The notes below the pieces were generated by a model. The model saw only the letters and a list, made by a program, of their open reading frames with translations, did not search any database and had not been told where the DNA came from. From positions 21,103,846 to 21,167,845 of the forward strand of contig NC_090414.1 in assembly GCF_036365525.1 (NCBI RefSeq): 64,000 nucleotides of DNA, in the 5' to 3' direction. Source of the DNA: Heterodontus francisci. Taxonomy: Eukaryota. A program made the position numbers and the translations under genes. This document shows positions 1-60,752 of this stretch, in pieces (positions within the stretch are counted from its first letter, which is position 1; the number at the start of each line of letters is the position of its first letter).

Positions 1-735
1 CTGTTTTTTTTTTATTTAAAAGAAAAAAGAGAAATCATATTTGGAACAACCCCCGCACAGACACTGCGTGGCCCAAGATAATGAACATACGTTGATGCAA
101 TCATTGAGGCACTGAATCAGAGGAGAGTGGATTCTGCACACACTCCGGGAATGATTTCTGATCACCGCAGAGCAGAATCCTGTCAAGAACAGCCCTTTGC
201 GTGCGTCAAGCAAGACTATTCAACTGTGGGGATCGTCACCTCCCACCTGATTGGGCCCTCAATGGAAGCATCCTCGCGCGCGCACAAGCCCTTACACACT
301 TGACAGCTAGCATCCATGCAGATAGGATGTTTGAATCGAGTGTGCACACTCCCAAATGTTAGGCAGGTAAAATAAGTCATCGCAAGATCGCCACTTGTGG
401 ACCCCCCCACCCCCCACCGCCCACCGCGCGCGTCACAGTGAAGTGTTGCATCGTTAGGAGGGGCTGCGGCCAACGTCCAAGCCCAGTCCAGAGGCTCAGC
501 CAACCCCTAGAGGCGCACGCATTCCCAGAAGGAGCAGTGACCGGCAGCAAGAACCTCTGGCTGATTCCTCCCTCCCCACAAAGGCAGAGGCAAACTGCAG
601 CTCGTGCTCCCACCGAGGTTGGAACCTTCCAGGGCGCACAGCTCAACACAGAACTGCGAGGGGCCTCGGGGGGGGGGGGGGGGGACGTGGCGAGGCAGCG
701 AAGGGCGCGGTTCCCCGCCTGCCGGGAGCAGCTAC

Positions 736-951
736 CTTTATCGTCGGGCAGATACTGGAACTCCATGGCGTCGCTGACTTCCTTGTCCGACGGGCGGCGG
801 AGCTGCATGTGGACTGTGACGGGCTGGCTCAGCGTCACGTCCCTGTAGGGCGGGGTCTTGAACACAATGGCCACCTGCCTGTGGACGTCTGCCTGAGAGA
901 AGGACCCCTTCCCTTCCCAGTCGTTGGTGAAGAATCGCACCTCAATATCCT
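736..951 (-). CDS. RELA: RELA (NF-kB p65) coding exon 8, IPT domain; gene continues beyond position 1
   Basis: [36 protein letters not shown]...[23 protein letters not shown]; cag acceptor at 952-953, gtag donor at 735; phase 1/1. Confidence 0.93.
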
Positions 952-1222
952 CTGATCGCGGAGGGGGGGGGACGCGGGATGGCGGAGGGAGAGAGAAGAA
1001 CATGGGTTACAGCTGGCCTTCCACCTCACCCAAACCCACCCCCTTCACTCCCCACCCACCCACATCCCATGAGGCATCGGCCCATTGCACAGGGACAATT
1101 TTCATGCCCTTCCCAAGTCCGGGATGGATTTGACCATGTCCGGTTTAAACTGCTCATATCACCCACTCCCGCCAGCAGGCCGAGCCAGAACCCGTCTTCC
1201 CCACACACAATATTCCAATCAC

Positions 1223-15260: not shown

Positions 15261-15360
15261 TCATTCAGTCAAGGTCCCCTGTGACGCTTCTTCAAGCTCC
15301 AAATCACCATTGGTGACTCCACATCCACTGCGGCTACGATGGAACATGTCACTCCCAGTC
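15261..15360 (-). CDS. Avidin-like protein, last coding exon
   Basis: tgtctctctgtttgatacag acceptor, phase 2; (G)TGSDMFHRSRSGCGVTNGDLELEEASQGTLTE*; TGSDMFHR matches avidin strand 8 VGINIFTR; ATTAAA at 15191-15196. Confidence 0.8.
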
Positions 15361-15501
15361 CTGTATCAAACAGAGAGACAAGAGTCCAGTAACCACGAAA
15401 TAGAAATAGGCAGATTTAGCTCGCACTATTTCATCAACTTGCAGTTGATGGGGACACTGTCCCCATCAAACACTCCCCAGGACAGGTACAGCACTGGGAT
15501 T

Positions 15502-18500
15502 GGCTGGGCAATTTGGAGCACTTCCTGCCAGCAATCAGGGGCAGCAACTGCAGAGTGGAGACTGCAGCAATTGGAGAGAGGAGAGTGGAATAACTGCAAA
15601 GAGGTGACTATAGAGTGGAGACAGCTGCATTTACTGTGGAACTGTTGCACTTTTTCAAGGATTAAGAAGACCTGCAAGTCATTTTGGAGAGGTGGGTGTT
15701 GGAGCACCAGAGAACTGTTGGTTGTTTGGACTGTTGGGGGAGGGAGGAGGCACCGGAAGATCCAGGGGTGGGGCTGCCAAATTCTATAGGGAGCCCTTGT
15801 ATTTGGTCTTGTGTTTATCTGCCATCCTGCACAAAAGGGGCTCCCTCCCCACCCCCAACTGTGTGGCTCGGGACAGCTGGAGCTGCCTGGCTGAAGACTA
15901 TATTTATACAACAACAGAAAAGGGAGAGAACCGGGCGGCTCGAGCCGACCCGGGCGAAGAGCACTCCCCTAACTGGAAGATTGAATTGTAGACTCTGCAG
16001 GAAGGTGCTCCAACCACCAATTGAAGTGTAACATCCTCGCAGCTGTTCTCTCTCTTCCATCACTCGGCCACCTATCCTCTCCTCTCCTTGTCCTTTTCAA
16101 CCCTATCCTCCTCTACTCCCATCCCCACCTCCCCCATCATATTGTTTGTGTTAAAGAAAACTGTCGTGTGCTTTGTTTTTTGGGGGTGGGCGTAGCTCTG
16201 CGACCCCATGGCAAGCCCCTCTTCGCCGGTGGCGGGGCCTTCCCGTTTATATGCTGCTGCGGCTGCTGCAGCTGCACCTGTTGCCCCGTCACCGTTTGCT
16301 TTATTAACATCGAAGCATGGAGTCAAGAGCTACGTCCACCCAAACATGACTATCGAGGCGTGCGTGAAAGCAATGGCCGAGGCTGTCGGCCCTTCAGCCA
16401 TTGTTGCAGCCTCTAAAATGTACGGGAAGGCAGTGTTATTCCTGAAGACCGAGCGGGCGGTGTCCCTGGCTCTGAGCAAGGGGCTCACCGTGGGCGGGAC
16501 CTTTCTGCCAGTGGACCCCCTGGAGGCCACTGCGCAAAGGCTCATTCTATCCAATGTCCCGCCCTTCATTCCTGGTGAGCTCCTCCTTCCCCACCTGCAC
16601 CATCTGGGGGAGGTAAAGACGGGGCTCACCCCAGTCCCGCTCGGTCTTCGGGAGAACAGCCTCCGACACGTGTACTCCTTCCGCCGCCAGTTATTCATGC
16701 AGCTGGCGCGGGAGGAGGTTACAGAGGGCCACTTTAATGTAGAATTCCAGGGGACGGCCTACCTCGTCTTCTGGACATTGGACGGGGTGCGGTGCCATGT
16801 CTGTAAGGGGGTGGGGCATGTTCGTAAGAACTGCCCCAACCTCCCGGCTGCCAACTCCAACTCGGTGGCCCAGGGTGGCGACACTGCACCTCCTCCCACC
16901 CCCACTACACCTCCACCAGATACCATTCAGTCGGTACTGGAGGCTGTGGTTTTCACGGCCTCCAGCAGGGAGGGGGGTGACCGTCCAAGTGGAAGGAAGG
17001 CGCAGAGGAGAAATAAACATCGAGAGGCGCGTCCCCTGGACACCGTGACACTACCCGAGCCTGAGCTCAGCCCAAGGCCCGATCTCGGGAAGTCAACTTG
17101 CCCCAGGGCTGGGCTCAGGCCCAGGGTGAATAAAAAAAAGGAGAGTGTGGAGGTGGAGGTCTCTGATGATATGGAGGTCTCTGAGCCTCCGCACACAACT
17201 GGGAAAAAGAGGAGAAGGCACCCCTCCACAGAGGTAATGAGGGACCCTGAGGCGCAGGGCCCATCTGTTGGAGGGGAGCTGTCTCCTGTTTCGGGTCCCC
17301 AGGTTTCCCCTACCGCCACCACCAAGGCTGCAAAGTCCGGGCAGGAGCACCCTATTCCTCAGGATGGAGGGGAGGGGAAGGCCCCGGTACTTGAGGCCCC
17401 TCCTGAAGGAGTAAGTGGGGCCCTGCTTGTGGTGGGGAGCCTGGGGACGCCGCCCATTCTGCCACTGCCACTGGGTTGGGTGCCCTGAGTAGAGGGGAGG
17501 GCGAGGCCTCAGAGGGTCGGCCCTCCCAGCCGGAGTCCACCACCAACCAGGAGACACCCGACCCGGTTATAGCTGAGAATGCTGCCCCATCTGCTGGGCC
17601 TGTGGGTGCTGGCGGAGCGGGAGATAGCCTCCTCCCTCCGCCTCCAATCTCGGCTCCGGCTGGTTTCCCGGAGTCGGGAACTTCTGTCTCCCCTGGACCA
17701 CTCATTGCCCTGGGGACGGAGGTGGAGGGGGGTCCTGAGCCGCTGGTGCCTACAGGCTCCAGTTTCACAATAGAACCCAGAGAGGACTCCTCCGCCATCG
17801 ATCCTGGGGGTGGGATCGTGACGGAGGCGGGACCAGCTGGCGCGGCCGGGACGTTCGCCCCACAGCGTGCGGTGGGAGTGTCGGCCGCTGGCGGTGACGA
17901 CCCGGAGGAGGATGGGGATTCAGTGGGGGGCACGGAGGATGATCTTGATTCCATCGCCAGTGAGATGGTGGAGTCCCTCATGCCTCCCACCGAATCTCCT
18001 CTCATCCCCACGGCGGAACTCCAGGATTTCCTCGCGGTTTGCAGGGGCTGCCGCAATAAAGTTCAGCTGGCCCTCGACCGTTGGTCGAATCTGGCGCTGA
18101 TCATCCAGTCCGTCCGTGCCGCCCTTAAGATAGCGGGCAAGCGCACGGGCGTGAAACTGGTTGAGAGGCGCCGTTTTAATGTGTTCCTCAATGGGTTGCT
18201 GGGGGAGTGGAAGGCCAGGTGCACGTCCACTCCCTCCTCACAGTGAGCTGTTGGTGACGGGTTTTAAGTACCTTTGACATGAAGATAACCATAGCCAGCC
18301 TCAACACCAACGGCAGCAGGGGGTCTCACCGCAGATTTCACAATCTCTCAGTCCTCAGGGAAGGGAGATACGCGGTGAGCTTTCTGCAGGAAACCCACAC
18401 CGTTCCGGGAGACGAAGCCACCTGGCTCCTGGAGTGGCAGGGTGGGGTCTACATGAGTCACCTCACCCCTATTTATAGTGGGGTGGCTATCTTGTTGGCC

Positions 18501-21500
18501 CCGACTTTTCAGCCGGAGATCTTGGGGGTCAAGGAGCTAGTGCCGGGCCGCTTGCTCCACCTCGCCGTTCGCCTGGGTAGCGTGCCACTCCACTTTGTGA
18601 ACGTGTACGCACCCAGACCTGGCGCGTTGCAAGCGCGCTTCTTTGAAGAAGTGTCCGCTCTCTTGAGCTCCATCGATAGCGGCGAGTGCATCATCCTCGG
18701 GGGGGATTTTAACTGCACCCTCGAGGTGGGGGATCGCTCCGGTCCCCAGCGCGGCCAAGCGTCGGTGGAGAAGTTGAGGGGACTGATCAGCTCCCTTAAC
18801 TTGGTGGACGTCTGGCGGAATCTCCATCCCGACTCCAGCGCCTTCACATGGAGGTCTGGAGGAGGAGGGTCGCGAATCGACCGCCTCTACATTTCGCATG
18901 CGTACGCCTCCCGCATCTCGGCGGCCTCCATGCGGCTGGTGCCGTGCTCGGACCACCGCTTGGTGTGGGCGGAGTTCACTCCGCTCCGCACGCGGGCGGG
19001 GTCCGCGTACTGGCACTTTAACAAACGGCTGCTGGAGGACGAGCGATTTCGGGACTCGTTCTGTCGATTCTGGGCCGACTGGAGAAGGGAGCAGGGGGGC
19101 TTCCCCTCCTTGAGGCTATGGTGGGATGTGGGCAAGACTCACATCCGCGTCTTCTGTCAGGAGTACGCGAAGGGGTCGACCAAGAGGCGAGAAGCCGAGA
19201 TCGGGCGCCTTGAGAGGGAGGTGCTCGACTTGGAGTCCCGCCTCGGTCATGCCGTCGCGGACCCGGCCCTGTGGCAGGCCTACAAAGAGAAAAGGGCGCG
19301 CTGAGAGACCTGCAGCTCTTAGGGTCCCGAGGCGCGTACGTGAGGTCGCGGATCCAGATCCTGGAAGATTTGGACCGTGCCTCACCCTTCTTCTACTCGC
19401 TGGAAAAATGGCGGGGGGTCCGTAAGCAGCTCGTCGAGCTGCTGGCCGACGACGGATCCTCCATCACGGATCCGGAGGGAATGGGCCTCCTGGTACGTAC
19501 TTATTACAGTGCGTTGTTCCCTCCGGATCCGTCCGGCGAGGATGCGCGCAGAGTTTTGTGGGAGGACCTGCCGCAGGTCAGCCCGGAGGGCGCCGAAGGA
19601 TTGGAGGCTCCGCTCACGTTGTTTGGAGCTGACTGGCGCCCTCCACCAGCTCTCGAGGGGCAAATCCCCGGGGCTGGATGGGTTGACCGTGGAGTTCCTC
19701 AGGGCGTTCTGGGACGTCCTGGGGGACGATTACGCGCGGGTCCTGGGGGAAAGCCTGGCGACCGGGGAGATGCCCCTCTCGTGGCGCAGGGCGGTTATCG
19801 TCCTGCTGCCGAAGAGGGGCGACCTCCGCCTGCTTAAAAACTGGCGTCCGGTCTCCCTCCTCAGCACGGATTATAAGATCTTTGCCGCCGCAGAGTGTCT
19901 AGTCAAAGTTAACGGGTCCTTGACGGCGCCCCTTCGATTTGGGAGAGGAGTGCGTCAGGGGTGCCCCATGTCCGGCCAATTGTATACCATCTGCGTGGAG
20001 CCCTTCCTGTGCCTGCTTCGCAGGAGGTTGACGGGATTGACTCTGCGCGAGCCGGCCATGCGGGTCGTCCTCTCGGCTTACGCCGACGACGTGCTCCTCG
20101 CAATCACAGATCCCGTTGACTTGCGGAGGATGCGCGACTGCCAGCAGACCTTTTCTGCCGCGTCCTCCGCGAGGATCAATTGAGAGAAATGTTCCGGACT
20201 CCTGGTTGGTCAGTGGCGGGTGGACTCCCTGCCGGAGGAGATGACACCTTTTGCGTGGAGCACCACGCACCTCCTCTATCTGGGAGTCCACCTTAGCCCC
20301 GCTGAGGAAGCCTGGCCGGCAAACTGGCAGGAGTTGGAGGCGAAAGTCACCGCTCGGCTGGGGCGCTGGACAGGACTGCTCCGAGTGCTTTCCTACAGGG
20401 GCCGAGCGCTGGTCATAAACCAACTGGTGGCCTCCATGCTGTGGTACCGGTTGGTCACTTTGGCCCCGCCCCCTGTATTTGCCACCAAGATCCAGAAGAA
20501 ACTCGTCGGTTTCTGCTGGGGCAAGAGGAAACACTGGGTCTCTGCCGCGGTCCTGAGTCTCCCGATCGAGGAGGGCGGTCAGTCGCTGGTGTGCGTCCGC
20601 ACCCAGGCTGCGACTCTCCGCCTTCGGACCCTGCAGAGATACCTGTACGTCGAGCGTCCTCCCAGATGGTGTGCGCTGGCGACGTATTTTTTCCGCCAGT
20701 GTCACTGCCTTCAAGACGACACGCAGCTCCCGGTGGAGTCCGTTAGCCGCGCCTCTCTGAGGGAGTTGCCTGTCTTTTACCGGGATCTTTTCCGAGTCTG
20801 GAACATGGTCGCCTCCAGTCAGGGCGCTCCCCCGCCGGCGGAGGAGAGCGCCTCGGCTGTCCGGGCGACCGACTCCGGGGACGGTCCGGCGGGTGGAGGA
20901 GTAGCCGAAACCCCCGGGACGCCCCTCACTGCGGGTGGCGAGGGGGCTCGGGAGTGCGGAGCGATCCCGGCCGAGCTGACCCCCGCTCGGCCGGAACTGC
21001 TCATCGGACCCAGGCCCCGAAACCCTCCTCGGGAGCCGGTCCCGCACAACCCGAGCCGCCTCTCGGAAATGCCCTCCGTGCCATTCCAATCGGCGCGGAG
21101 GGGTTTCCTGTACGGGTTGCTCCTGCACACTCTCCACTTCCTCGCCCTCGTCAGCCGGCCGGACACGCCCTGGCGGTCCGCGTTGCCATCTGACGGCGAG
21201 GGGAAACCCCGATGGAGGTCTCTCTACGCGGGAGTCTTCCCCCTTTACATCGGGGACCTGGGGTGGAGGGTGCTGCACAGAGCAGTCCCGTGCAATAGGC
21301 TTTTAAGTAGGTTCACGGACTCCCAGGCCTCCTGTACTTTCTGCAGCCTGGACGAGTCCGTGTTCCACGTTTACATGGAGTGTGCGAGGTTGCAGCCCCT
21401 CTTTGAGTATCTGAAGGGGCTGCTCCTCAAATTCTGGCTGCACTTCAGTCCCACGCTCCTGATCTTTGGGCACCCGGTGCGGAGGGGCTCGGGCCGGGAG

Positions 21501-21885
21501 GAGGATCTCCTCGTCGGTCTGCTCCTGGGCCTGGCCAAGGTGGCGATTCACAGGTCCAGGCTGCGGGCCGTCGGGGGTTCCGTCCTCCCCGATTGCCTGC
21601 CCCTCTTCCGCGGTTACGTTCGCGCCCGGGTGTCCCTGGAGAAGGAGCACGCGGTGTCCGCCGGTACGCTTGAGGCCTTCCGCGACTGGTGGGCACCGCA
21701 GGGACTGGAGTGCATTGTCGACACCGAGAATGGCATTTTAATTTGAGTTTTTGTTTATTTCTGTTTTTAATAAAGTTATTTTAAAAATATAGGTGTGTAT
21801 ATAAAGGGGGCCTGAGGAATAAAGGCCCCCTCGACATAAAATATATAAAAGGGGCCTGGGGTTTCAAGGCCACCTAAAAAAAAAA
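15502..21885 (+). mobile_element. Tx1-clade non-LTR retrotransposon, near full length, defective (copy 1), antisense in avidin intron 3
   Basis: ORF1 16208-18246 with CCHC knuckle CHVCKGVGHVRKNC (frameshift ~17440); ORF2 18279-21746 with APE endonuclease (FLQETH, GGDFN, SDH), RT (YADD) and C-terminal CTFC..H..C; frameshifts ~19290 and ~19620, deletion at ~19886, stop at 20181; poly(A) 21876-21885. Confidence 0.95.
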
Positions 21886-22125
21886 CGGGGGTTAGATACA
21901 GAGTAAAGCTCCCTCTACACTGTCCACATCAAACACTCCCAGGACAGGTACAGCACGGGGTTAAATAACGGTTCCTTGAGATGATGAGGCTCTGAAGCAT
22001 CACTTCCACCCCTTGGTATTCCCGCCTCCCTTGAGATAAAGACTAACATCCACTCACATTGCTTGTAAGTAAGTACCTGTGGGCAGGATTTACAATCCTA
22101 TCTACACAAGAGATGCTTTAATTAC

Positions 22126-22249
22126 CCGGTAGCTCCCCAGTTATCCTCTGGGTTCGACGCACTTCGCCGGTGTAACCACATGGTTTTCAAGACCTCTCTA
22201 TTTTTTATCTTAAAGTGCTGTCCGGTCCAAGCTGTGACACACCCTGGGT
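22126..22249 (-). CDS. Avidin-like protein, exon 3
   Basis: DPGCVTAWTGQHFKIKNREVLKTMWLHRRSASNPEDNWGATG, compare avidin STTVFTGQCF...EVLKTMWLLRS...DDWKATR; AG/GT, phase 1/2. Confidence 0.92.
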
Positions 22250-22455
22250 CTGTGGGCGAAGGAAATACAAAACAGTCATTAGGGTATGTGTCATTGTCGG
22301 TTTAAACAGAGAAAACCAAACACTAGGGTTTGTTTCTGGAGGGATAGAATCGAAAGCAGGGAGGTTATGTGAAACTTGGACAGAACCTTCGTTAGACCTA
22401 GTCATATACGTGGCTGCCCAGAGCATCATACAGCTCAATAAATACTATGGGTTAC

Positions 22456-22642
22456 CTGTGATCCACCTCACTATAAACCCAAACGTTGGTTGGCTGAGGT
22501 TCTGCTGATATCCAGTTACAACCCCTCTTGCACTGCGTCCAGTCTTCAACATGTAAGAGCCACTTATGAGCCCAGAGTCACGCACTACGATGTTCAGGCT
22601 TGACCCGAGTTCACTTATCCAACAGCCAGTCAGTGGCAGTGC
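22456..22642 (-). CDS. Avidin-like protein, exon 2
   Basis: ALPLTGCWISELGSSLNIVVRDSGLISGSY...GYQQNLSQPTFGFIVRWIT, compare avidin SLTGKWTNDLGS...GTY...QPTFGFTVNW; AG/GT, phase 0/1. Confidence 0.92.
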
Positions 22643-23446: not shown

Positions 23447-24252
23447 TCTAACCCAGGGGTCACTGGACAGTGATCAGGAGCAGGAACCCTGACTGATTCT
23501 CCCCCCTCTCTCTAACCCAGGGTCACTGGACAGTGATCAGGAGCAGGAACCCTGACTGATTCTCCCCCCTCTCTCTAACCCAGGGTCACTGGACAGTGAT
23601 CAGGAGCAGGAACCCTGACTGATTCTCCCCCCTCTCTCTAACCCAGGGGTCACTGGACAGTGATCAGGAGCAGGAACCCTGACTGATTCTCCTCTCTCTC
23701 TAACCCAGGGTCACTGGACAGTGATCAGGAGCAGGAACCCTGACTGATTCTCCTCTCTCTCTAACCCAGGGTCACTGGACAGTGATCAGGAGCAGGAACC
23801 CTGACTGATTCTCCCCCCTCTCTCTAACCCAGGGGTTACTGGACAGTGATCAGGAGCAGGAACCCTGACTGATTCTCCCCCCTCTCTCTAACCCAGGGGT
23901 CACTGGACAGTGATCAGGAGCAGGAACCCTGACTGATTCTCCCCCTCTCTAACCCAGGGGTCACTGGACAGTGATCAGGAGCAGGAACCCTGGCTGATTC
24001 TCCCCCCTCTCTCAAACCCAGGGGTCACTGGACAGTGATCAGGAGCAGGAACCCTGGCTGATTCTCCCCCTCTCTAACCCAGGGGTCACTGGACAGTGAT
24101 CAGGAGCAGGAACCCTGACTGATTCTCCCCCCCTCTCTCTAACCCAGGGGTCACTGGACAGTGATCAGGAGCAGGAACCCTGACTGATTCTCCTCTCTCT
24201 CTAACCCAGGGGTCACTGGACAGTGATCAGGAGCAGGAACCCTGACTGATTC
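23447..24252. repeat. ~62-bp tandem repeat, about 13 copies, avidin intron 1
   Basis: Unit CTCTAACCCAGGGGTCACTGGACAGTGATCAGGAGCAGGAACCCTGACTGATTCTCCCCCT(CT)n. Confidence 0.92.
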
Positions 24253-24389: not shown

Positions 24390-24461
24390 CATTTCTTCAC
24401 AGGAGGTGCTGAAGACACACAAGGAAAGCGTGAGCGCCAGGTACACAATCTTGCCCTGCAT
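24390..24461 (-). CDS. Avidin-like protein, exon 1 (signal peptide)
   Basis: gcagcagcATG context; MQGKIVYLALTLSLCVFSTSCEEM has a basic residue, hydrophobic core and small-residue cleavage region; gtaagt donor in phase 0 matches exon 2. Confidence 0.8.
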
Positions 24462-27060: not shown

Positions 27061-27214
27061 TCAAAGGTTGGCGACAGGCGGCTCCTTCAAGTTGCGGCCC
27101 GTCCCGGCGATTGGCCGATCTCTCTCCTCCCACAGGGTCACACCGTCGCACGAGCAGATCTTTTTCGGATTCTGGAAGAGTCCAGCGGAGCGAGCTATAA
27201 TTCCGCAGGCCAAA
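27061..27214 (-). CDS. CCS: Copper chaperone for SOD1, exon 8
   Basis: [51 protein letters not shown]; CXC motif. Confidence 0.95.
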
Positions 27215-27866
27215 CTTGGTGGGGGGGTGGGGGGGGGGAAAGCAAGGATCTGAGATCAGGCACAGCATGTGTTACATACAGAGTAAAGCTCCCTCTACAC
27301 TGTCCCCATCAAAAAACACACACACAGCCCCATATCCAGAACTGGAGAATAATGGGGGTAAACTGCAGGAATACATAATGAGGGCAGGTCTCATGGGCTA
27401 TGCTCGTGCTCCCACCGCACCCCCACCCCCCCAAAAAAAAACAGGTTTAACATTTCGTCTGAAAGACGGCACCTGTGACAGTGCAGCACTCCCTCGGTAC
27501 TGCACTGGGAGCGTCCGCCTGAACTATACGCTCAGCAACATAAGATGCATTTTTTATACAATTTCAAGCCTTATGAAGCATCTGCTAAGGTTCTGCATTT
27601 AAACCCGACTGTGTCCTCCCCTCGAAGCAGGATTGCAGGATCTTGTAGTACGGATGCACCCTCCCTCCTCCGTCCCACCTCGGCTCTCCCCTCGCTCTAT
27701 AAAATGAGAGGGTAGTACAGTTCCCCTCACTTGGTCTATAGCTCGGCTCTCCGAGGGGCATCAAGCAGCCGAAGGCCTGGCATACGGTGCCCGTCGGCCG
27801 CCAGCCAGCCACCAGGGATGCCCGCCGCACGCGTGTCGGTCCGAGCTGGTTCGCCCGCTAACCTAC

Positions 27867-27970
27867 CGGTCTCCAGAGTTGCCTGTAATCTGGGACAGTG
27901 GGTGGGCTCCTTTGCCCAAGTCGTCCTCGTTACTGTCAACCACCACCGACCGGCCTATGATGTCCCAGAC
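27867..27970 (-). CDS. CCS: CCS exon 7
   Basis: VWDIIGRSVVVDSNEDDLGKGAHPLSQITGNSGDR; 104 nt, AG/GT. Confidence 0.95.
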
Positions 27971-34717: not shown

Positions 34718-37700
34718 GGCTGCTGTCTAATTGGGGTGTTGACTGCTGATTGCAGCAACGAGCCTCAGCTGAGAGTGCTGGTGGCAGTTGGAGGTTGCTG
34801 AGGTGGAGAGAGGAGCTGGACTGAGCAAGGGAAAGCAGTTACAACCAAGCAGAGGGAAAGCTTCAACAACAATCACCATTAAAGAGAAGAGAGAGATATT
34901 TTTTGTTGGAAACAAGGCTTTGTCTGGAGGTGGGGGCTGAACACCAGTAATTTGCTTTACTTTGGACTGTTGTGGGACGAACAAGTGGCCGGAACAACAA
35001 GGGGTGGGGCTGCCAATTCAGCAGGAATCTGTGCTGCTGCACAAGCACACAGGAAAGCTCCCTCCCCACCCCAATTGCCAAGCCTGGGTCAGCTGAAGCT
35101 GCCCGGCTAAAGAGACGGAAGGGGATAGATAGTGCCTGGGCAGCTTCAGCTGACTCAGGTGAAGATACCTCCCTCAACCAGAAGATCGGAAGACCAAGTG
35201 CAAAGACTGTTTTAAGTGTACTGTGAGCACCACCTCCAGAAAGCAAGTCATCCCTTACCACATGTCTTTACCTCTCCTCTATTCCCTCAGCCTCTCCACT
35301 AACCTGTTGTTTGTTTTTTTTTTAATACATATCCAATATCTTTTGTGAATCTTTTGTTATTCGGTTTGCAAGCCCACAATTTGGGGTGGGTTTAGCTCTT
35401 GGATCCATGGCAAGCCCTTCAACCCCGGTGGCCGGGCCCTCTACAACCTATGCAGCTGCAGCCTCTGTGGCTGCCCACGTGGCCCCGTCACCCTTTAAAT
35501 TGCTAACATCCAGCCATGGGGTGAAGAGCTATCCCCACCCCAACATGTCTATTGAGGCCTGCGTAAAGGCAATGGCCGAGGTTGTCGGCCCCTCGGCCAT
35601 TGTTGCGGCCTCAAAGATGTATGGGAAGGCTGTGTTCTTTTTGAGGACCGAGCGGGTGGTGTCCCTGGCCCTGAGTAAAGGGATCACTGTGTGTGGGGGG
35701 GGTGGGGGACCTTCCTGCTGGTGGACCCTCTGGGGGCCACTGTGCAGCGGATAATGCTATCAAACGTCCCACCCTTCATTCCCAGTGAGCTCCTCCTCCC
35801 CCATCTGCACCATCTGGGGGAGGTGAGGTCGGGGATCACCCCAATCCCGCTCGGTCTTCGGGAGCACAGCCTCCAACATGTCTACTCCTTCCGCCGCCAG
35901 TTATTTATGCAGCTGGCGCGGGAGGACACGGCAGGCCAATTTAATGTGGAGTTCCAGGGGACGGCCTACCGTGTCTTCTGGACCTCAGGCGGGGCGCGGT
36001 GCCACGTCTGCAAGGGGGTGGGGCATGTTCGCAAGAACTGCCCCAACCTCCCGGCCGCCAGCTCCACCTCGGCGGCCCAGGTTGATGCCGCTGCACCTCC
36101 TCCCACTACCCCCACACATCCTACAGACACAGCTCAGTCGGTTCCGGAGGCTGTGGTTTTCACAGCCTCCAGCGGGGAGGGGAGTGCCCGTCCGAGTGGA
36201 AGGAAGACGCGGGGAAAAATAAACACTGAGAGGCGCGTCCCCTGGACACCATGACACAACCCGAGCCTGAGCTCAGCCCAAGGCCCGTTCTCACGGAATC
36301 CACCTGTCCCAGGGCTGGGCTCAGGCCCAGAGTAATGAAAAAGAAGGAGGGTGCGGAGGCCTCTGATGACATGGAGGTCTCTATGCCTCCGTGCCCTAGT
36401 GGGAAAAAAGAGGAGAAGGCACCCCTCCACTGAGGTAACGAGGGGCCCTGAGGTGCAGGGCCCATCTGTTGGAGGGGAGCTGTCTCCTGGTTCAGGTCCC
36501 CAGGTTCCCCCTACCGCCACCACCAAGGCTACAAAGTCTGGGCAGGAGCACCCTATTCCTCAGGATGGAGGGGAGGGGAAGACACCTGTACATGCAGCCC
36601 CTCTGGGGGAAGCCAGTGGAGCCCTGCTTGTGGTGGGGAAGCCTGGGGACGCCTCCCATTCTGCCACTGGGTCGGGTGCCCTGAGTGGAGGGGAGGGCGA
36701 GGCCCCAGATGGTCGGCCCTCCCAGCCAGAATCCACTCACAACCAGGAAACACCCGACCCGGTTATAACCGAGAATGCTGCCCCATCTGCTGGGCCTGTG
36801 GGTGCTGGCGGAGCGGGAGATGGCCTCCTCTCTCCGCCTCCAGTCTTGGCTCCGGCTGGATTTCCGGAGTCGGGCACTTCTGTCTCCCCTGGGCCGCTCA
36901 TTGGCCTGGGGACGGAGGTGGAGTGGGGTCCTGAACCGCTGGCGCCCACAGGCTCTAGTTTCACAGCAGAACCCAGAGAGGACTCCTCCGCCATCGATCC
37001 TGGGGGTGGGATCGTGACGAAGGCGGGACCAGCTGGCGCGGTCGGGAGTCCGCCCCACAGTGTGCGGTGGGCGTGTCGGCCGCTGGCAGTGACGACCCGG
37101 AGGAGGATGGGGATTCGGTGTGGGGCACGGAGGGTGATCTTGATTCCATCGCCAGTGGGGTGGTGGAGTCCCTCGTGCCTCCCGAGTCACCTCTAATCCC
37201 CACGGCGGAACTCCGGGATTTCCTCACGGCTTGCAGGGGTTGCCGCGATAAAGTTCAGCTGGCCGTCGGCCGTTGGTCGAATCTGGCGCTGATCATTCAG
37301 TCCGTCCGTGCCACCCTCAAGAAAGTGGGCAAGGGTGGGGGCGTGAAACTGGTTGAGAGGCGCCGTTTTAATGTGTTCCTCAATGGGTTGCTGGGGGAGT
37401 GGAGGGCCAGGTGCACTTCCACTCCCTCCTCACAGTGAGGTGTTGGTGACGGTTTTAAGTACCTTTGACAAGAAGATAACCATAGCCAGCCTCAACATCA
37501 ACGGCAGCAGAGGGGCTCACCGCAGATTTCACAATCTCTCAGTCCTTAGGGAAGGGAGATACGCGGTGAGCTTTCTGCAGGAAACCCACACCGGTCCGGG
37601 AGACGAAGCCACCTGGCTCCTGGAGTGGCAGGGTGGGGTCTACATGAGTCACCTCACCGCTATTTCTAGTGGGGTGGCTATCTTGTTGGCCCCGACTTTT

Positions 37701-40700
37701 CAGCCGGAGATCTTGGGGGTCAAGGAGCTAGTGCCGGGCCGCTTGCTCCACCTCGCCGTTCACCTGGGTAGCGTGCCGCTCCACTTTGTGAACGTGTACG
37801 CGCCCAGGCCCGGCGCTTTGCAAGCGCGCTTCTTTGAAGAAGTGTCCACTCTCTTGAGCTCCATCGATAGCGGCGAGTGCATCATCCTCGGGGGGGATTT
37901 TAACTGCACCCTCGAGGTGGGGGAATCGCTCCGGACCCCAGCACGGCCAAGCGTCGGTGGAGAAGTTGAGGGAACTGATCAGCTCCCTTAACTTGGTGGA
38001 CGTCTGGCGGAATCTCCATCCCGACTCCAGCGACTTCACGTGGAGGTCTGGAGGAGGAGGTCCGCAAATCGACCGCCTCTACTTTTCACAGGCATACGTC
38101 TCCCGCGTCTCGGCGGCCTCCATGCGGCTGGTGCCGTGCTCGGACCACCGCCTGGTGTGGGTGGAGTTCACTTTGCTCCGCACGCGGGCGGGGTCCGCGT
38201 ACTGGCACTTTTACAACTGGCTGCTGGAGGACGAGCGATTTCGGGACTCGTTCTGTCGATTCTGGGCCGACTGGAGAAGGAAGCAGGGGGGCTTCCCCTC
38301 CTTGAGGCTATGGTGGGATGTGGGCAAGATTCACATCCGCCTCTTCTGTCAGGAGTACGCGAAGGGGTCGACCAAGAGGCGGGAAGCCGAGATCGGGCGC
38401 CTTGAGAGGGAGGTGCTCGACTTGGAATCCCGCCTCGGTCATGCCGTTGCGGACCCGGCTCTGTGGCAGGCGTACAAAGAGAAGAAGGGCGCGCTGAGGG
38501 ACCTGCAGCTCATAGGGTCCCGAGGCGCGTACGTGAGGTCGCGGATCCAGATCCTGGAAGATTTGGACCGCGCCTCACCCTTCTTCTACTCGCTGGAAAA
38601 ATGGCGGGGGGTCCGTAAGCAGCTCGACGAGCTGCTGGCCGACAACGGATCCTCCATCACGGATCCGGAGGGAATGGGCCTCCTGGTCCGTACTTATTAC
38701 AGTGCGTTGTTCTCTCCGGATCCGTCCAGCGAGGATGCGCGCAGAGTTTTGTGGGAGGACCTGCCGCAGGTCAGCCCGGAGGGCGCCGACGGATTGGAGG
38801 CTCCGCTCACGTTGGCGGAGCTGACTGGCGCCCTCCACCAGCTCTCGAGGGGCAAATCCCCAGGGCTGGATGGGTTGACCGTGGAGTTCCTCAGGGCGTT
38901 CTGGGACGTCCTGGGGGACGATTACGCGCGGGTCCTGGGGGAAAGCCTGGCGACCGGAGAGATGCCCCTCTCGTGGCGCAGAGCGGTCATCGTCCTGCTG
39001 CCGAAGAGGGGCGATCTCCGCCTGCTTAAAAACTGGCGTCCGGTCTCCCTCCTCAGCACGGATTATAAGATCTTTGCCCGGGCTATGTCTACCCGCCTGG
39101 GCTCCGTGCTGGCCCACATGATCCACCCCGACCAGTCCTACACGGTCCCGGGCCAGTCCATCCAGGACAACATCCACCTGGTCCGGGACCTGATCCATCT
39201 TTCCCAGAGGACTGGTCAGTCGGTCGCCTTTCTCTCCCTCGATCAGGAGAAGGCGTTCGACAGGGTGAATCACAAATATCTTTTCGGGACTCTGCGCGCT
39301 TTCGGACTCGGGCCGCATTTTGTGGCCCGGGTCCGACTTTTATACGCCGCCGCAGAGTGTCTAGTCAAAGTTAACGGGTCCTTGACGGCGCCCCTTCGCT
39401 TTGGGAGAGGAGTGCGTCAGGGGTGCCCCATGTCCGGCCAATTGTACACCATCTGCGTGGAGCCCTTCCTGTGACTGCTTCGCAGGAGGTTGACGGGATT
39501 GGCTCTGTGCGAGCCGGCCATGCGGGTCGTCCTCTCGGCTTACGCCGACGACGTGCTCCTCGCGGTCACAGTTCCCGTTGACTTGTGGAGGATGCGCGAC
39601 TGCCAGCAGACCTTTTCTGCCGCGTCCTCCGCGAGGATCAATTGGGAGAAATGTTCCGGACTCCTGGTGGGTCAGTGGCGGGTGGACTCCCTGCCGGAGG
39701 AGGTGACACTTTTTGCGTGGAGCACCACGCACCTCCTCTATCTGGGAGTCCACTTTAGCCCCGCTGAGGAAGCCTGGCCGGCAAATGCCAGGAGTTGGAG
39801 GCGAAAGTCACCGCTCGGCTGGGGCGCTAAACAGGACTGCTCCGAGTGCTTTCCTACAGGGGCCGAGCGTTGGTCATAAACCAACTGGTGGCCTCCATGT
39901 TGTGGTACCGGTTGGTCACTTTGGCCCCGCCCCCTGTATTTGCCACCAAGATCCAGAAGAAACTCGTTGATTTCTTCTGGGGCAAGAGGAAACACTGGGT
40001 CTCTGCCGCGGTTCTGAGTCTCCCGATTGAGGAGGGTGGCCAGTCGCTGGTGTGCGTCCGCACCAGGCTGCGACTCTCCGCCTTCGGACCCTGCAGAGAT
40101 ACCTGTACGTCGAGTGTCCTCCCAGATGGTGTGTGCTGGCGACGTATTTTTTCCGCCAGTGTCACTGCCTTCAAGACGACACGCAGCTCCCGGTGGAGTC
40201 CGTTAGCCGCGCTTCTCTGAGGGAGTTGCCTGTCTTTTACCGGGATCTATTCCGAGTCTGGAACATGGTCGTCTCCAGTCAGGGTGCTCCCCTGCCGGCG
40301 GAGGAGAGCGCCTCAGCTGCCCGTGCGGCCGAATCTGGGGACCGTCCGGCGGGCGGAGGAGTAGCCGAAACCCCCGGTTGCCCCTCACTGCGGGTGGCGA
40401 GGGGGCTCGGGAGTGCGGAGCGATCCCGGCTGAGCTGACTCCCGCTCGGCCGGAACTGCTCATCGGACCCAGGCCCCGAAACCCTCTTCGGGAGCCGGTC
40501 CCGCACAACCCGAGCCGCCTCTCGGAAATGCCCTCCGTGCCATTCCAGTTGATGCGGAGGGGTTTCCTGTACGGGCTGCTCCTGCACACTCTCCACTTCC
40601 TCGCCCTCGTCAGCCAGCCGGACACGCCCTGGCGGCCCGCGTTGCCATCTGGCGGCAAGGGGAAACCCCGATGGAGGTCTCTCTGCACGGGAGTCTTCCC

Positions 40701-41307
40701 CCTTTACATCGGGGACTTGGGATGGAGGGTGCTGCACAGAGCAGTCCCGTGCAATAGACTTTTAAGTAGGTTCATGGACTCCCAGGCCACCTGTACTTTC
40801 TGCGGCCTGGACGAGTCCGTGTTCCACATTTATACGGAGTGTGCGAGGTTGCAGCCCCTCTTTGAGTATCTGAAGGGGCTGCTCCTCAAATTCTGGCTGC
40901 ACTTCAGTCCCACGCTCCTGATCTTTGGGCACCCGGTGCGGAGGGGCTCGGGCCGGGAGGAGGATCTCCTCGTCGGTCTGCTCCTGGGCCTGGCCAAGGT
41001 GGCAATTCACAGGTCCAGGTTGCGGGCCGTCGGGGGGTCCGTCCTCCCCGATTGCCTGCCCCTCTTCCGCGGTTACGTTCGCGCCCGGGTGTCCCTGGAG
41101 AGGGAGCACGCGGTGTCCGCCGGTACGCTTGAGGCCTTCCGCGACCGGTGGGCACCGCAGGGACTGGAGTGCATCGTCGACGCCGAGAATGGCATTTTAA
41201 TTTGAGTTTTTTGTTGATTTATCTGGTTTTAATAAAGTTATTTTAAAAATATAAGTGTGTATATAAAGGGGGCCTGAGGAATAAAGGCCCCCTTGATAAA
41301 AAAAAAA
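34718..41307 (+). mobile_element. Tx1-clade non-LTR retrotransposon, full length, defective (copy 2), antisense in CCS intron 3
   Basis: ORF1 from 35407 (CCHC knuckle, several frameshifts) to 37438; ORF2 ~37469-41205 with start ATG changed to AAG, stop at 39472 and frameshifts; exact duplication CGGGGGTT at 34710-34717 and 41308-41315. Confidence 0.95.
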
Positions 41308-53000: not shown

Positions 53001-53346
53001 ATTAAAACACATTCAAAAGTAAAAAAGCAAAAACACCCATGGCTAGAGGATAAGGAGACTTGGCGTTTGACCTCTTCCCCGACACAACGTATACCGCTCC
53101 ATGCCAGCATTTGGATCTGCGTTACTTACTGCGGAGCCCACAGCATTCCTCAGCTGGCATTATTGCTCGGAAACCAGGGCACTGCCAAGGGAAGAGTCTT
53201 CAACGGGCGTCTCTGAATTCCATGTGGGAGTGGAGAGACAAGTTAAATTAATCGCAGGCGAGGTTGAACTTTCCTCCCCTGCCCCTAATCGAGAAGCCTG
53301 GCAGCCCCCCTCACTCCCCGGGTTTTTGTCTGTAATGGATACATAC

Positions 53347-53839
53347 CTACTGATGCTATCGTCTATGAATTTCTCGTTCTGATATTTTGGCACAGTGAGC
53401 GGTGAGAGACGGGTGCGCTCGTACAGAGTGCAGCTGTTGGCCGCTGCTGCTGCTGATGTGCTTAGGCGGTTAGGGCTCCTCTCCCTCACATAATTGAGCG
53501 CCATGTAACTTGCTGCGGGAGCCGCGGTCTGGTAATCTTCATAATAGTCGTAATAGGAGGCGTGACCATAGTCGTAATCGTAATACGAATAGTAAGAGGG
53601 GTAATATTGAGTCGGGAACTGGTACTGGCTATACTGATTGTAACGCGCGGAGTGGCAATCTCTCGCTTGGTGGCCCTGCCTTCCACAGCGCTGGCACACA
53701 TCCCGCTGCCCGCCAGATTTCCCGTAGGTCGACCGGGAGAGCTGGACCCTGAGCCTGTTCCCATTGAATTCCTTCTCGTCCAGGTTGGTAATTGCTTGGA
53801 CTGCATCTTCCTCCTTCTCCATGTGCACAAAGGCGTAAT
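53347..53839 (-). CDS. RBM14/RBM4-family protein, exon 2 (end of RRM2, CCHC knuckle, Tyr-rich tail)
   Basis: DYAFVHMEKEEDAVQAITNLD...CQRCGRQGHQARDC...RERSP...YERTRLSP; gtatgt donor. Confidence 0.9.
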
Positions 53840-55103
53840 CTGCAAAGCGAGAAGAATAGAGTTCATGTTAACCAAATCTTACTTACAGCACAGGTGCCAG
53901 CACACTATCGGAAAGGAGTCACACTTAACACCTTTTAACATGGTGCCTGTCGACATTTTAGGGGAAGATCGATAGGTCCAAGGGAGAAGGGAATAAAGAA
54001 TATTCTCGAGGGTGAGTGGAGGCTCATGTGGAGCATAAACACTGGCTTGAACCTGTTGGACCGAATGGCCCATTTCTCTGCTGCAAATACTATGTAATTC
54101 CACACAGTGGAATTCACTTCGGTTGCGGTAGCACCATTTCTTTCTGCAGCCTGTCCTGTAAAAAAGGACACAGTTGATCAACTGTATAACACTTTTGCCA
54201 ACAAAACACTTGATCCCAATCACCTGGCTTCAGCTATGTAGGTTTGCGGTTAGCAACTTCAAAACAAAAAAAAGGCAGAAATAGTCGGAAGCAAAGTAAA
54301 AGCGTTTACAGTGGAGTTCTCCACCCCCCCTGCACCCCAATCATTGGAAAGTGTGTGTGCGCGTGCACACACAGGATTGGGTTCTGCTATTTAGTGACAG
54401 ATCTGCGAGAGTTAGTGCCATCAGAACACGAAGTAAAATGTTTGACAACAAAGGTTCAAATGCAAAACACAGGGATTTACCTCTATGAGATATAGGTCTC
54501 TAAACAGCTCCCACAAATATAAAACACTTCAATATTATCAGGATGGCTAGGACGGTGGATTTGGGGAGGGGAAAAGAGACACAGGGAAGACAGAACTTTC
54601 TCCTCAAACTGGTAGACCAACTGGGCTTCACCAGTGTTTTATTTCATTTGAAACCTTTTCACTCCCTCTCCAATTTCTCACTTTGGTGTCCCACGCCCCA
54701 AGCATTTACATTCTGGTTTGTCTCTCCATAGCCTCATTCCAGTGCAGCACTGAGCGAGGCGATGCCTCTTCAGATGGGACATTAAAAACGGAGGCCCCAT
54801 TAGGTGGCCTTATAAGAGACACGGCCACTATTTTGAAGAGTATGGGATGTCTCCCCAGTGTCCCGGCCAATACTTATCTGTCAACCAACATCATTAAAAT
54901 GGATTCACTGGTCATTATCACATTATTGTGGGATCTTACTGTGCTGGGGCTAAAAGCATTAAATTACAATGAGGCATGAGTTTGGAAGTTTAAGGGTGAA
55001 CCTTTTAGAGTTATACAACACTGAAACAGGCCCTTCGGCCCATCATGTCTATACTGGCCATCAAGCACTGAAAACTGAATTTGAACTGTTTTAAGATGAT
55101 TAA

Positions 55104-57980: not shown

Positions 57981-58085
57981 TACCGTACCAAACTAGTCAG
58001 AAACCAGCAGAGATCAAGGATCAAACCTGGTCAGTGTGTAACTAATTAATCCTTCTCCTCTCTCTCAGTTTAGGCCTTTGTACAC

Positions 58086-60752
58086 ATGGAACACAAGGAG
58101 GAAGCACTGAAAGCCATTAACAAGATGGATCTCACTGACGTTAAGGGAAGGAAGATTAGGGTACAGCCATCCAAGACAAGTGCCAAGCCAGAATCCGGCG
58201 GTGGTCCTGTGGAAAATTGCCAGGACGGCAGAAGACCAAGCCACCAGGCAATAGAATGCTTCTGGGCTCCTTATGATTCCCTAGATAGGTATGGCCCCCA
58301 AACTTCATGCTACCCTCTCTATGGCCAGCATTGTGGATATGACAGTGCTACCAGGCAGTACGTCAGTTATTACAAACAGCTTCCTCCCCGGCCACAGCTT
58401 CTACTCCAGCGGAAGCTCCTGCCTGAGCCTCAGCTTCACTCACAGCCCAAAGCCGTCTGCAGTGCGTCTGGGGACAGCCCACTCCGGTGGCCAAGCACGA
58501 CCCAGTACAATCGCTTCCGTCTTCCTCCATCTCCAAAGCTGGAAAACAGAAAACCCATGAAGAGGAAGGTGCCGCAGGATAAACTGGCCTTCGGCAAAAG
58601 GGCCCGCACCTCTCTGGTAAATACCCACACTTTGGGAGAGAGAGCTCAATCTGGCCTGTTAAATACCCCCACCCTGGGAGAGAGAGCCCAATCCGGCCTT
58701 TTAAATACCCCCACCCTGGGAGAGAGAGCCCAATTCGGCCTGTTAAATACACCTGCCCTGAGAGAGTGTGTCCGACCCAGCCTGTTAAATACACCTGCAC
58801 TGGGAGAGGGAGCCTGGCCCGGCCTGTTAAAAAGCCCCACCCTGGGAGAGAGTGTCCGACCAGGCCTGTTAAATAGACCCACCCTGGGAAAGAGAGCCCA
58901 ATCCGGCCTGTTAAAAAGCCCCACCCTGGGAGACAATGTCCAACCAGGCCTGTTAAATAGACCCACCCTGGATGAGATAGCCCAATCCGGCCTATTAAAA
59001 AGCCCCACCCTGGGAGAGAGTGTCCGACCAGGCCTGTTAAGTAGACCCACCCTGGATGAGATAGCCCAATCCGGCCTGTTAAAAAGCCCCACCCTGGGAG
59101 AGAGTGTCCGACCAGGCCTGTTAAATAGACCCACCCTGGGAGAGAGTGTCCGACCAGGCCTGTTAAATAGACCCACCCTGGATGAGATAGCCCAATCCGG
59201 CCTGTTAAAAAGCCCCACCCTGGGAGAGAGTGTCCGACCAGGCCTGTTAAATAGACCCACCCTGGATGAGATAGCCCAATTCGGCCTGTTAAAAAGCCCC
59301 ACCCTGGGAGTGAGTGTCCGACCAGGCCTGTTAAATAGACCCACCCTGGGTGAGAGAGTCCAATCCGGCCTGTTAAAAAGCCCCACCCTGGGAGAAAGTA
59401 TCCGACCAGGCCTGTTAAGTAGACACACCCTGGGAAAGAGTGCCCAATCTGGCCTGTTAAATACCCCCACCCAGGGAGAGAATGTCCGAACCAGCCTGTT
59501 AAATACACCCATCCTGGGAGAGAGTGTCCGACCCAGTCTATTAAATATCCCCACGCTGGGAGAGAGAGCCCAGTCCGGCCTGTTAAATATTCCCACCCTG
59601 AGAGAGAGAGTCCAGTCCGGCCTGTTAAATTCACCCATTCTGGGAGAGAGTGTCCGACCCAGTCTATTAAATATCCCCACAATGGGAGAGAGAGCCCAGT
59701 CCGGCCTGTTAAATACCCCCACCCTGAGAGAGAGAGCCCAGTCCGGCCTGTTAAATTCACCCGTTCTGGGAGAGAGTGTCCGACCCAGTCTATTAAATAT
59801 CCCCACAATGGGAGAGAGAGCCCAGTCTGGCCTGTTAAATACCCCCACCCTGAGAGAGAGAGCCCAGTCCGGCCTGTTAAATTCACCCGTTCTGGGAGAG
59901 AGTGTCCGACCCAGTCTATTAAATATCCCCACAATGGGAGAGAGAGCCCAGTCCGGCCTGTTAAATACCCCCACCCTGAGAGAGAGAGCCCAATCCGGCC
60001 TGTTAAATACCCTCACCCTGGCAGAGAGAGCCCGGTTCGGCCTGTTAAATACCCCGACCCTGGGAGAGAGAGCCCAGTCTGGCCTGTTAAATGCCCCCAC
60101 CCTGGGAGAGAGAGCCCAGTCTGGCCTATTAAAAACCCCCACCCTAGGAGAGAGAGCCCAGTCCAGCCTGTTAAATACCCCGACCCTGGGAGAGAGAGAC
60201 CAGTCCGGCCTGTTAAATACCCCGACCCTGGGAGAGAGAGCCCAGTCCGGCCTATTAAAAGCCCCCACCCTGGGAAAGAGAGCCCAGTCCGGCCTGTTAA
60301 ATACCCCGATCCTGGGAAAGAGAGCCCAATCTGGCCTGTTAAATACCCCGACCCTGGGAGAGATAGCTCAGTCCGGCCTATTAAAAACCCCCACCCTGGG
60401 AAAGAGAGCCCAGTCCGGCCTGTTAAATACCCCGACCCTGGGAGAGAGAGCCCAGTCCGGCCTGTTAAATACCCTGACCCTCGGAGAGAGAGCCCGGTCC
60501 GGCCTGTTAAATTCACCCACCCTGGGAGAGAGTGTTCGACCCAGCCTGTTAAATACTCTCGCTCTGCGAGAGAGCCCAAACCGACCTGGCCTGTTAAATA
60601 AACCCATCCTGGGAATGAGTGCCCCATTTGGTCTGTCACACAAGCCCTCTGTCTATGCCTCTGCTCACCCGAGGATGTACTTGCTGGATCGTGCTCCCCA
60701 CTATTCTGTACCTCCCAAGCGAGCTGTCAGTTCCTGCACCCCTGTGGTGTAA
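58086..60752 (+). CDS. RBM14/RBM4-family paralog exon 2: half RRM, decayed knuckle, long 13-aa repeat region; coding status uncertain
   Basis: AFVHMEHKEEALKAINKMD...GRKIRVQPSK; 888 open codons; AATAAA at 60927-60932. Confidence 0.6.
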   Translation: MEHKEEALKAINKMDLTDVKGRKIRVQPSKTSAKPESGGGPVENCQDGRRPSHQAIECFWAPYDSLDRYGPQTSCYPLYGQHCGYDSATRQYVSYYKQLPPRPQLLLQRKLLPEPQLHSQPKAVCSASGDSPLRWPSTTQYNRFRLPPSPKLENRKPMKRKVPQDKLAFGKRARTSLVNTHTLGERAQSGLLNTPTLGERAQSGLLNTPTLGERAQFGLLNTPALRECVRPSLLNTPALGEGAWPGLLKSPTLGESVRPGLLNRPTLGKRAQSGLLKSPTLGDNVQPGLLNRPTLDEIAQSGLLKSPTLGESVRPGLLSRPTLDEIAQSGLLKSPTLGESVRPGLLNRPTLGESVRPGLLNRPTLDEIAQSGLLKSPTLGESVRPGLLNRPTLDEIAQFGLLKSPTLGVSVRPGLLNRPTLGERVQSGLLKSPTLGESIRPGLLSRHTLGKSAQSGLLNTPTQGENVRTSLLNTPILGESVRPSLLNIPTLGERAQSGLLNIPTLRERVQSGLLNSPILGESVRPSLLNIPTMGERAQSGLLNTPTLRERAQSGLLNSPVLGESVRPSLLNIPTMGERAQSGLLNTPTLRERAQSGLLNSPVLGESVRPSLLNIPTMGERAQSGLLNTPTLRERAQSGLLNTLTLAERARFGLLNTPTLGERAQSGLLNAPTLGERAQSGLLKTPTLGERAQSSLLNTPTLGERDQSGLLNTPTLGERAQSGLLKAPTLGKRAQSGLLNTPILGKRAQSGLLNTPTLGEIAQSGLLKTPTLGKRAQSGLLNTPTLGERAQSGLLNTLTLGERARSGLLNSPTLGESVRPSLLNTLALRESPNRPGLLNKPILGMSAPFGLSHKPSVYASAHPRMYLLDRAPHYSVPPKRAVSSCTPVV
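58611..60620 (+). repeat. 39-bp in-frame tandem repeat, about 50 copies
   Basis: Unit GGCCTGTTAAATACCCCCACCCTGGGAGAGAGAGCCCAGTCC-like, encoding GLLNTPTLGERAQS-type units. Confidence 0.95.

Follow-up and report, generated by a model that had tools for sequence, protein, structure and literature searches.

In avidin, the ureido oxygen of biotin is held by N12, S16 and Y33 and its ring NH groups by T35 and N118; T77 contacts the sulfur, and the side-chain carbonyl is bound by T38 and A39 (PMC6274289). The T35A mutation alone reduces the affinity of avidin about 200-fold, and remodelling of the lid loop costs about 500-fold in one avidin variant (PMC3201017). The so-called dead streptavidin is the triple mutant N23A/S27D/S45A (PMC5175265). 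The role of vertebrate avidins is unsettled, and a zebrafish knockout was without phenotype; the same work, by Saralahti et al. 2026, catalogued a second chondrichthyan avidin clade (clade 2), whose members lack the canonical disulfide (PMC13425791). Here, we describe an avidin gene within a 64,000-nucleotide stretch of the genome of the horn shark Heterodontus francisci (the window; contig NC_090414.1, positions 21,103,846 to 21,167,845). Our best reading overall, which we hold with somewhat better than even confidence, is that this gene encodes a secreted tetrameric clade-2 avidin with a relocated disulfide and a biotin pocket eroded by relaxed selection.

The gene runs on the minus strand from 24461 to 15261 of the window. 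Its first exon (24461-24390) lies outside the span 15261-22642 treated in an earlier sequence-only reading of this DNA. The four exons are as follows:

24390..24461, minus strand: exon 1, with the start codon and a signal peptide-like segment (residues 1-24), in agreement with the N-terminus of the NCBI protein
22456..22642, minus strand: exon 2, with strands 1-5, Cys31, Ser34, Ser38, Tyr54, Leu56, the shortened lid loop and Trp84
22126..22249, minus strand: exon 3, with strands 6-7, Cys90, Thr92, Trp94, His98, Trp111, His113 and Trp124
15261..15360, minus strand: exon 4, with strand 8 including Asp132 and Arg136, Cys141, the 19-residue acidic tail and the stop codon

The exons measure 72, 187, 124 and 100 bases, all junctions are GT-AG with phases 0/1/2, and the joined exons give an open frame of 160 residues identical to XP_067877801.1 ('avidin-like [Heterodontus francisci]', NCBI). 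Residues 28-135 match the Pfam family Avidin (PF01382) with E=2.5e-24 and 86.3 bits against a cut-off of 24. The signal peptide was called by eye, without a predictor, and Cys21 sits at or near its likely cleavage site. The chicken avidin gene likewise has four exons. By tblastn, the window holds a single avidin copy, and no further horn shark paralogue occurred among the best 120 of 497 protein matches.

We aligned the protein to chicken avidin, using the numbering of the PDB-derived sequence, and the residue assignments made by hand in the sequence-only reading were borne out. S16, Y33, W70, T77, W97 and W110, shared with chicken avidin, AVR2/AVR4 and xenavidin (PF01382), are conserved as Ser38, Tyr54, Trp84, Thr92, Trp111 and Trp124. 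F79W (Trp94) and N118D (Asp132) are streptavidin-like, as is the short lid loop. Four further pocket residues differ from those of chicken avidin, namely N12S (Ser34, 22615-22613), T35L (Leu56, 22549-22547), S75C (Cys90, 22241-22239) and L99H (His113, 22172-22170), and the L3,4 lid loop is four residues shorter, with a Y33-G51 span of 15 residues compared with 19. The aromatic cage of W70, F/W79, W97 and W110 is complete (Trp84, Trp94, Trp111 and Trp124), and the polar set of high-affinity biotin-binding avidins (N12, S16, Y33, T/S35, T77 and N/D118) retains four of its six members, N12S and S35L being the changes. Both partners of the C4-C83 disulfide are lost, with Leu26 and His98 in their places, and new cysteines appear at position 9 (Cys31, 22624-22622) and in the tail (Cys141, 15323-15321), the latter five residues past Arg136, the equivalent of Arg122. 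The tail is acidic, with 24 residues and a net charge of -4. The register of the alignment was also upheld by structural superposition, which places model residues 137-139 on avidin 123-125.

The fold appears untouched by these changes. AlphaFold2 predicts a barrel of eight strands with a local distance difference test score (pLDDT) of 87-98 over residues 31-140, and this model superimposes on avidins with Z of 16-17 (for AVR4, Z 17.3 and 1.6 Å for the r.m.s.d. (root-mean-square deviation) over 112 residues). Tetramer prediction, proposed earlier as a check, gave 0.91 for four copies in ESMFold2 compared with 0.01 for the best of three controls, a result that may reflect memory of solved avidins; W110, which in the avidin homotetramer reaches into the neighbouring pocket, is retained as Trp124. 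The ESMFold2 runs agreed in at least 89% of the contacts with pLDDT of at least 79; of the reference cases, 17 of 29 eukaryotic homo-pairs but none of 30 single chains attained the mark. The barrel and the predicted tetramer interface thus seem, as far as the models tell, intact despite the pocket changes.

Comparison with close relatives separates old from new differences. Three protein searches yielded 27 further shark and ray members of the subfamily; with the partial P0176 dropped, 27 rows including the horn shark remained, and these form one group with support of 94/90 in a tree without a chondrichthyan clade-1 row. In the same group as the horn shark protein are C. carcharias 2A/2B, C. 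plagiosum 2 and S. tigrinum 2, labelled according to Table S2 of PMC13425791 (all 18 chondrichthyan rows), and the subfamily corresponds to the second of the chondrichthyan clades in Saralahti et al. The horn shark protein is 41-56% identical to the clade-2 members aligned and has W79, D118, Cys9 and the tail Cys in common with them. C4 and C83 are absent and W79 is present in all 27 members, and D118 is found in 26. The sequence-only reading had taken everything that differs from chicken avidin for a single remodelling. The cysteines, the tail, F79W and N118D are instead old subfamily features, present also in relatives whose polar pocket is intact, which leaves five gene-specific changes. 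N12S, S35L, a three-residue lid deletion, S75C and L99H occur in the horn shark alone among the 27. N12 and S35 are retained in every one of the other 26 members, all of which also have a lid span of 18 residues, as opposed to 15 in the horn shark.

These changes seem to be concentrated around the ligand. We took as the pocket the published residues within 4 Å of biotin (PMC1831776) and found, in post hoc tests that are suggestive only, that when columns count as conserved from a threshold of 70%, the horn shark protein departs at 6 of 14 in the pocket and at 3 of 37 outside it (Fisher p=0.008, or 0.021 with the deletion counted as one event). The three conserved columns changed outside the pocket are V67I, K69R and V78A. 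The other 26 members, pooled, show no pocket excess (17/364 in the pocket and 76/970 elsewhere). A gene that is merely fast-evolving was ruled out by the horn shark branch length of 0.41, which is not unusual beside the 0.47-0.51 of zebra shark and Mustelus. Several observations weigh against a specific loss in the pocket. The enrichment varies with the choices made, giving p=0.037/0.081 at a threshold of 80%, 0.055/0.125 at 90%, and 0.125 with a first pocket list of our own making. Moreover, S75C and L99H are unique as residues at positions that also vary in rays, position 75 being D, N or A in five and position 99 F, R, A or E in six of the other 26 members.

The same clustering bears on the suggestion that the horn shark copy binds another ligand. 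A pocket retuned to a steroid, another small hydrophobic molecule or a peptide would be formed by Ser34, Leu56, His113, Arg60 and Cys90. The concentration of changes in the pocket with few conserved changes outside it, and the intact frame, splice sites and tetramer interface, are what such retuning would leave, and avidin has been turned into a steroid binder by randomising loops 1-2 and 3-4 (PMC3201017). However, relaxed constraint on the biotin contacts alone predicts the same clustering, and the steroid binders selected from avidin kept N12 (PMC3201017). None of the steroid-selected pocket mutants in the antidin table (PMC6382169) equals the horn shark set. No second species with the same pocket residues was found, so that conservation of the new residues is unsupported. 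We therefore regard retuning as unlikely, and a little less likely still the fuller version, in which positive selection drove a natural vertebrate avidin to a different ligand, bound with the help of His113 and a reactive Cys90 at the pocket mouth, on a shark-and-ray scaffold held by an undescribed disulfide from strand 1 to the tail.

An avidin-like protein of the bird Leptosomus discolor (P0061) has N12, L14, S16, T35, V37, S75 and N118 all changed. It is thus more altered than the horn shark copy, and eroded avidins have a precedent.

How strongly would the erosion affect biotin binding? N23 and S45 of streptavidin align with Ser34 and Leu56, so two of the three sites of dead streptavidin are altered, a combination unique among the 27 members. 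The match is partial: Asn23 is replaced by Ser rather than Ala, Ser45 by Leu, and the equivalent of S27, Ser38, is kept. The reduced affinity suggested by the sequence-only reading is supported in this indirect way. Because N12, the hydroxyl at position 35 and part of the lid are lost, and given the precedents of T35A and dead streptavidin, much weaker biotin binding is expected; a secreted tetramer with this property is, in our judgement, likely, and on the best reading the affinity would be lowered by orders of magnitude. In the sequence of events that we propose, the horn shark lineage would have lost the ureido-oxygen contact N12 and the ureido-NH contact S35 after the disulfide had moved; the lid loop would have become three residues shorter, and S75 and L99 would have been replaced by Cys (probably unpaired) and His, respectively. 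S16, Y33, T77, D118 and the four Trp residues would leave residual binding, at a guess roughly in the nM-µM range. The erosion may have proceeded by relaxed selection on a redundant paralogue, most likely beside a canonical clade-1 avidin.

Further points stand on the other side of this account. A review cautions that substitutions are no reliable guide to biotin binding (PMC8033661). A clade-1 avidin is present in all 11 chondrichthyan species of Table S2 (PMC13425791), and its presence in the horn shark itself is extrapolated from those species. The lid loop is just one residue shorter than that of streptavidin, and Thr58 is in the list of inter-subunit contacts of the tetramer model, so that the lid may still close. 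This leads to the alternative of a protein that remains a good biotin binder, at nM affinity or better, in which a lid of streptavidin length closes, Ser34 stands in for Asn12, and S16, Y33, T77 and D118 with the four Trp residues suffice. Of 220 other avidins, 10 carry N12S; zebavidin is functional at 3.7 nM (PMC13425791), and W70, W79, W97, W110, Y33, S16 and D118 are all retained. However, with Leu at position 35 a hydrogen bond is lost and the side chain is bulkier, positions 12 and 35 are both changed in only 2 of the 220, and with six departures at 15 pocket positions the horn shark protein is within the six most altered of 235 avidins, when the allowed residues are chosen by us. We consider this alternative improbable.

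The second element of the proposed reading is the new pair of cysteines. Cys9 is present in 26 of the 27 members, a Cys lies one to six residues past the last Arg of strand 8 in all 27, and Cys9 together with a Cys at one to seven residues past this Arg (R+1..R+7) occurs in 26, a count that represents one inherited event. The two are the sole cysteines of the mature region in 15 members. Four members stop one to four residues past the Arg with Cys at R+1, and three stop two residues past a Cys at R+5. In 220 other avidins, 18 of 265 proteins having been dropped as multi-domain or synthetic, both canonical cysteines are present in 132, Cys9 in 2, and a tail Cys of this kind in 8 of 207 scorable. 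One of the two with Cys9, P0084, which does not belong to the shark clade, carries a terminal Cys as well but neither C4 nor C83, and may represent an independent origin of the same staple. Strands 1 and 8 lie side by side and close the avidin barrel. AlphaFold2 models the final ten residues of the short-tailed sawshark orthologue P0009, the Cys included, with a mean pLDDT of 93. The co-conserved pair is most simply read as a relocated disulfide: Cys31 on strand 1 would pair with Cys141 just past strand 8 and staple the barrel in place of C4-C83. We consider such an intrachain replacement likely.

The cysteines might instead link subunits or tetramers. Inter-subunit disulfides are known from AVR4 (C122) and AVR6 (C58) (PMC1831776), and in the horn shark protein Cys90, and possibly Cys21, would be left without a partner. 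One catshark copy and a lungfish avidin (P0027) carry the tail Cys without Cys9, which favours this alternative and tells against the intrachain pair, as does the single inherited event behind the count of 26. On the other hand, the 15 members with exactly these two cysteines point to a partnership within the chain, as do the chains ending just past the R+1 Cys in four members and the separate case of P0084; residues 31 and 141 are unnamed in the confident tetramer interface list, an absence of little weight. We regard inter-subunit linkage as rather unlikely. Several ray avidins (P0008, P0155, P0160, P0163 and P0164) have a second Cys pair at R+1 and at R+17 or R+20. Both sites are Tyr in P0162 of Mobula hypostoma, which suggests that the two cysteines formed a further tail disulfide and were lost together.

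The sequence-only reading had also raised the possibility that the acidic tail caps the pocket, as bradavidin does. Strand 8 and the tail are encoded in one exon, so the tail is no splice artefact provided that exon 4 is used; for another last exon, 24 acceptor candidates fitting a loose pattern were considered, and avidin strand 8 follows only from 15360 and from one acceptor 9 bases inside. In bradavidin, C-terminal residues 129-138 fill the neighbouring pocket and lower the biotin affinity to about 2.8e-7 M (PMC3344845; PMC5398887). Bradavidin likewise extends past strand 8 and has Trp75 and Asp107 at positions 79 and 118; it retains Asn9 (N12), Ser71 (S75) and Leu91 (L99), unlike the horn shark protein. 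The precedent is real, and the horn shark tail is in principle long enough. However, tail length varies from 1 to 42 residues across the subfamily, with at most seven residues in 7 of the 27 members, and net charge from -8 to +2; of 15 comparisons of the sequence past the Cys, just four reached p<0.05 before correction, and no similarity survived it. The Brad-tag is conserved in rhodavidin and works on an intact pocket, in contrast to the horn shark tail, which follows a Cys and is unconserved among orthologues. No likeness to the Brad-tag was seen by eye, and long tails also occur in relatives with intact pockets. The two tail blocks of the AlphaFold2 monomer have pLDDT of 59 and 53, compared with a mean of 95 for the block of residues 131-140. 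Tail residues are unnamed in the confident tetramer interface list, which does not thereby exclude a contact with the pocket. Because the tail is short in 7 of 27 members, unconserved past the Cys and modelled at low confidence, self-capping is very unlikely. The tail lowers the calculated isoelectric point of the protein from 9.3-9.8 to 6.4-7.8, whereas that of chicken avidin is 9.7, and the 19 residues past Cys141 may be a flexible acidic appendage that is dispensable for the fold.

Turning to the gene model, an exon 3 acceptor 6 bases downstream was set aside, as the NCBI model takes the upstream one. With respect to expression, no RNA run was among the nine public runs listed as sharing sequence words, eight of which share 0.15-0.30 of the words, the kind of run being a guess. 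None of the exon junctions was among the 15 joints listed (57 more existed) from four of these runs, in which repeat contigs dominate, and no differences within exons were among the 40 listed (468 more) for the contigs of these runs. Contigs of all four runs cover the exon-2 bin, which neither demonstrates nor excludes splicing. Intron 3 is 6.8 kb long because a broken non-LTR (long terminal repeat) retrotransposon of about 5.6 kb, a long interspersed nuclear element (LINE) that we take to be Tx1-like, was inserted there. Within the span 15261-22642 (7.4 kb), about 5.6 kb is broken LINE rather than avidin sequence. A second LINE copy at about 35380-41300 is 90.6-95.7% identical to the first. 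Both copies adjoin a repeat unit of about 70 bases, which recurs in clusters along the window and is present in very many copies among public contigs; the insertion looks targeted beside this repeat. Intron 1 holds a tandem array of a unit of about 60 bases at about 23460-24250. The other features of the window are:

16180..21840 (approximate), plus strand: broken non-LTR retrotransposon of intron 3, antisense to avidin, with a zinc-knuckle open reading frame, an endonuclease and a zf-RVT Pfam match
380-1006, minus strand: Rel homology dimerisation exon (Pfam)
27066-27970, minus strand: Cu/Zn superoxide dismutase (SOD)-domain exons directly upstream of the avidin gene (Pfam)
53163-53867, minus strand: RNA recognition motif (RRM) gene (Pfam)
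58074-60749, plus strand: RRM gene

The SOD exons resemble the copper chaperone CCS, and the RRM genes resemble RBM4/RBM14. Among the avidins collected, P0011 (XP_067831661.1, 'transmembrane protein 223 [Heptranchias perlo]', NCBI) ends with a clade-2 avidin domain and is probably a fused gene model. Seven proteins of 350-420 residues with two avidin domains and hydrophobic C-termini (P0013, P0014, P0015, P0019, P0031, P0032 and P0034), one of them from the annelid Owenia, are natural tandem avidins that may be anchored in the membrane.

The clade itself, including the loss of its canonical disulfide, is already catalogued (PMC13425791); the probable replacement Cys pair and the eroded pocket are the additions made here. 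The text and supplements of PMC13425791 contain no occurrence of Heterodontus, and the main text has no mention of a replacement Cys pair or of the tail, although the alignment in its Figure 1B may display the cysteines. In the open-licence literature, we found no report of the replacement pair or of the horn shark pocket, no paper on a Heterodontus avidin-like protein, and nothing relevant on an avidin of the elasmobranch egg or reproductive tract. Should the pocket simply be in decay, the gene would be of modest value, as one more degenerate avidin paralogue like the bird copy. The relocated disulfide, if true, would provide avidin engineering with a new stabilising motif. With biotin contacts kept across sharks and rays and lost in one lineage, the subfamily offers a clean natural comparison with which to ask whether biotin sequestration is the selected function of these proteins.

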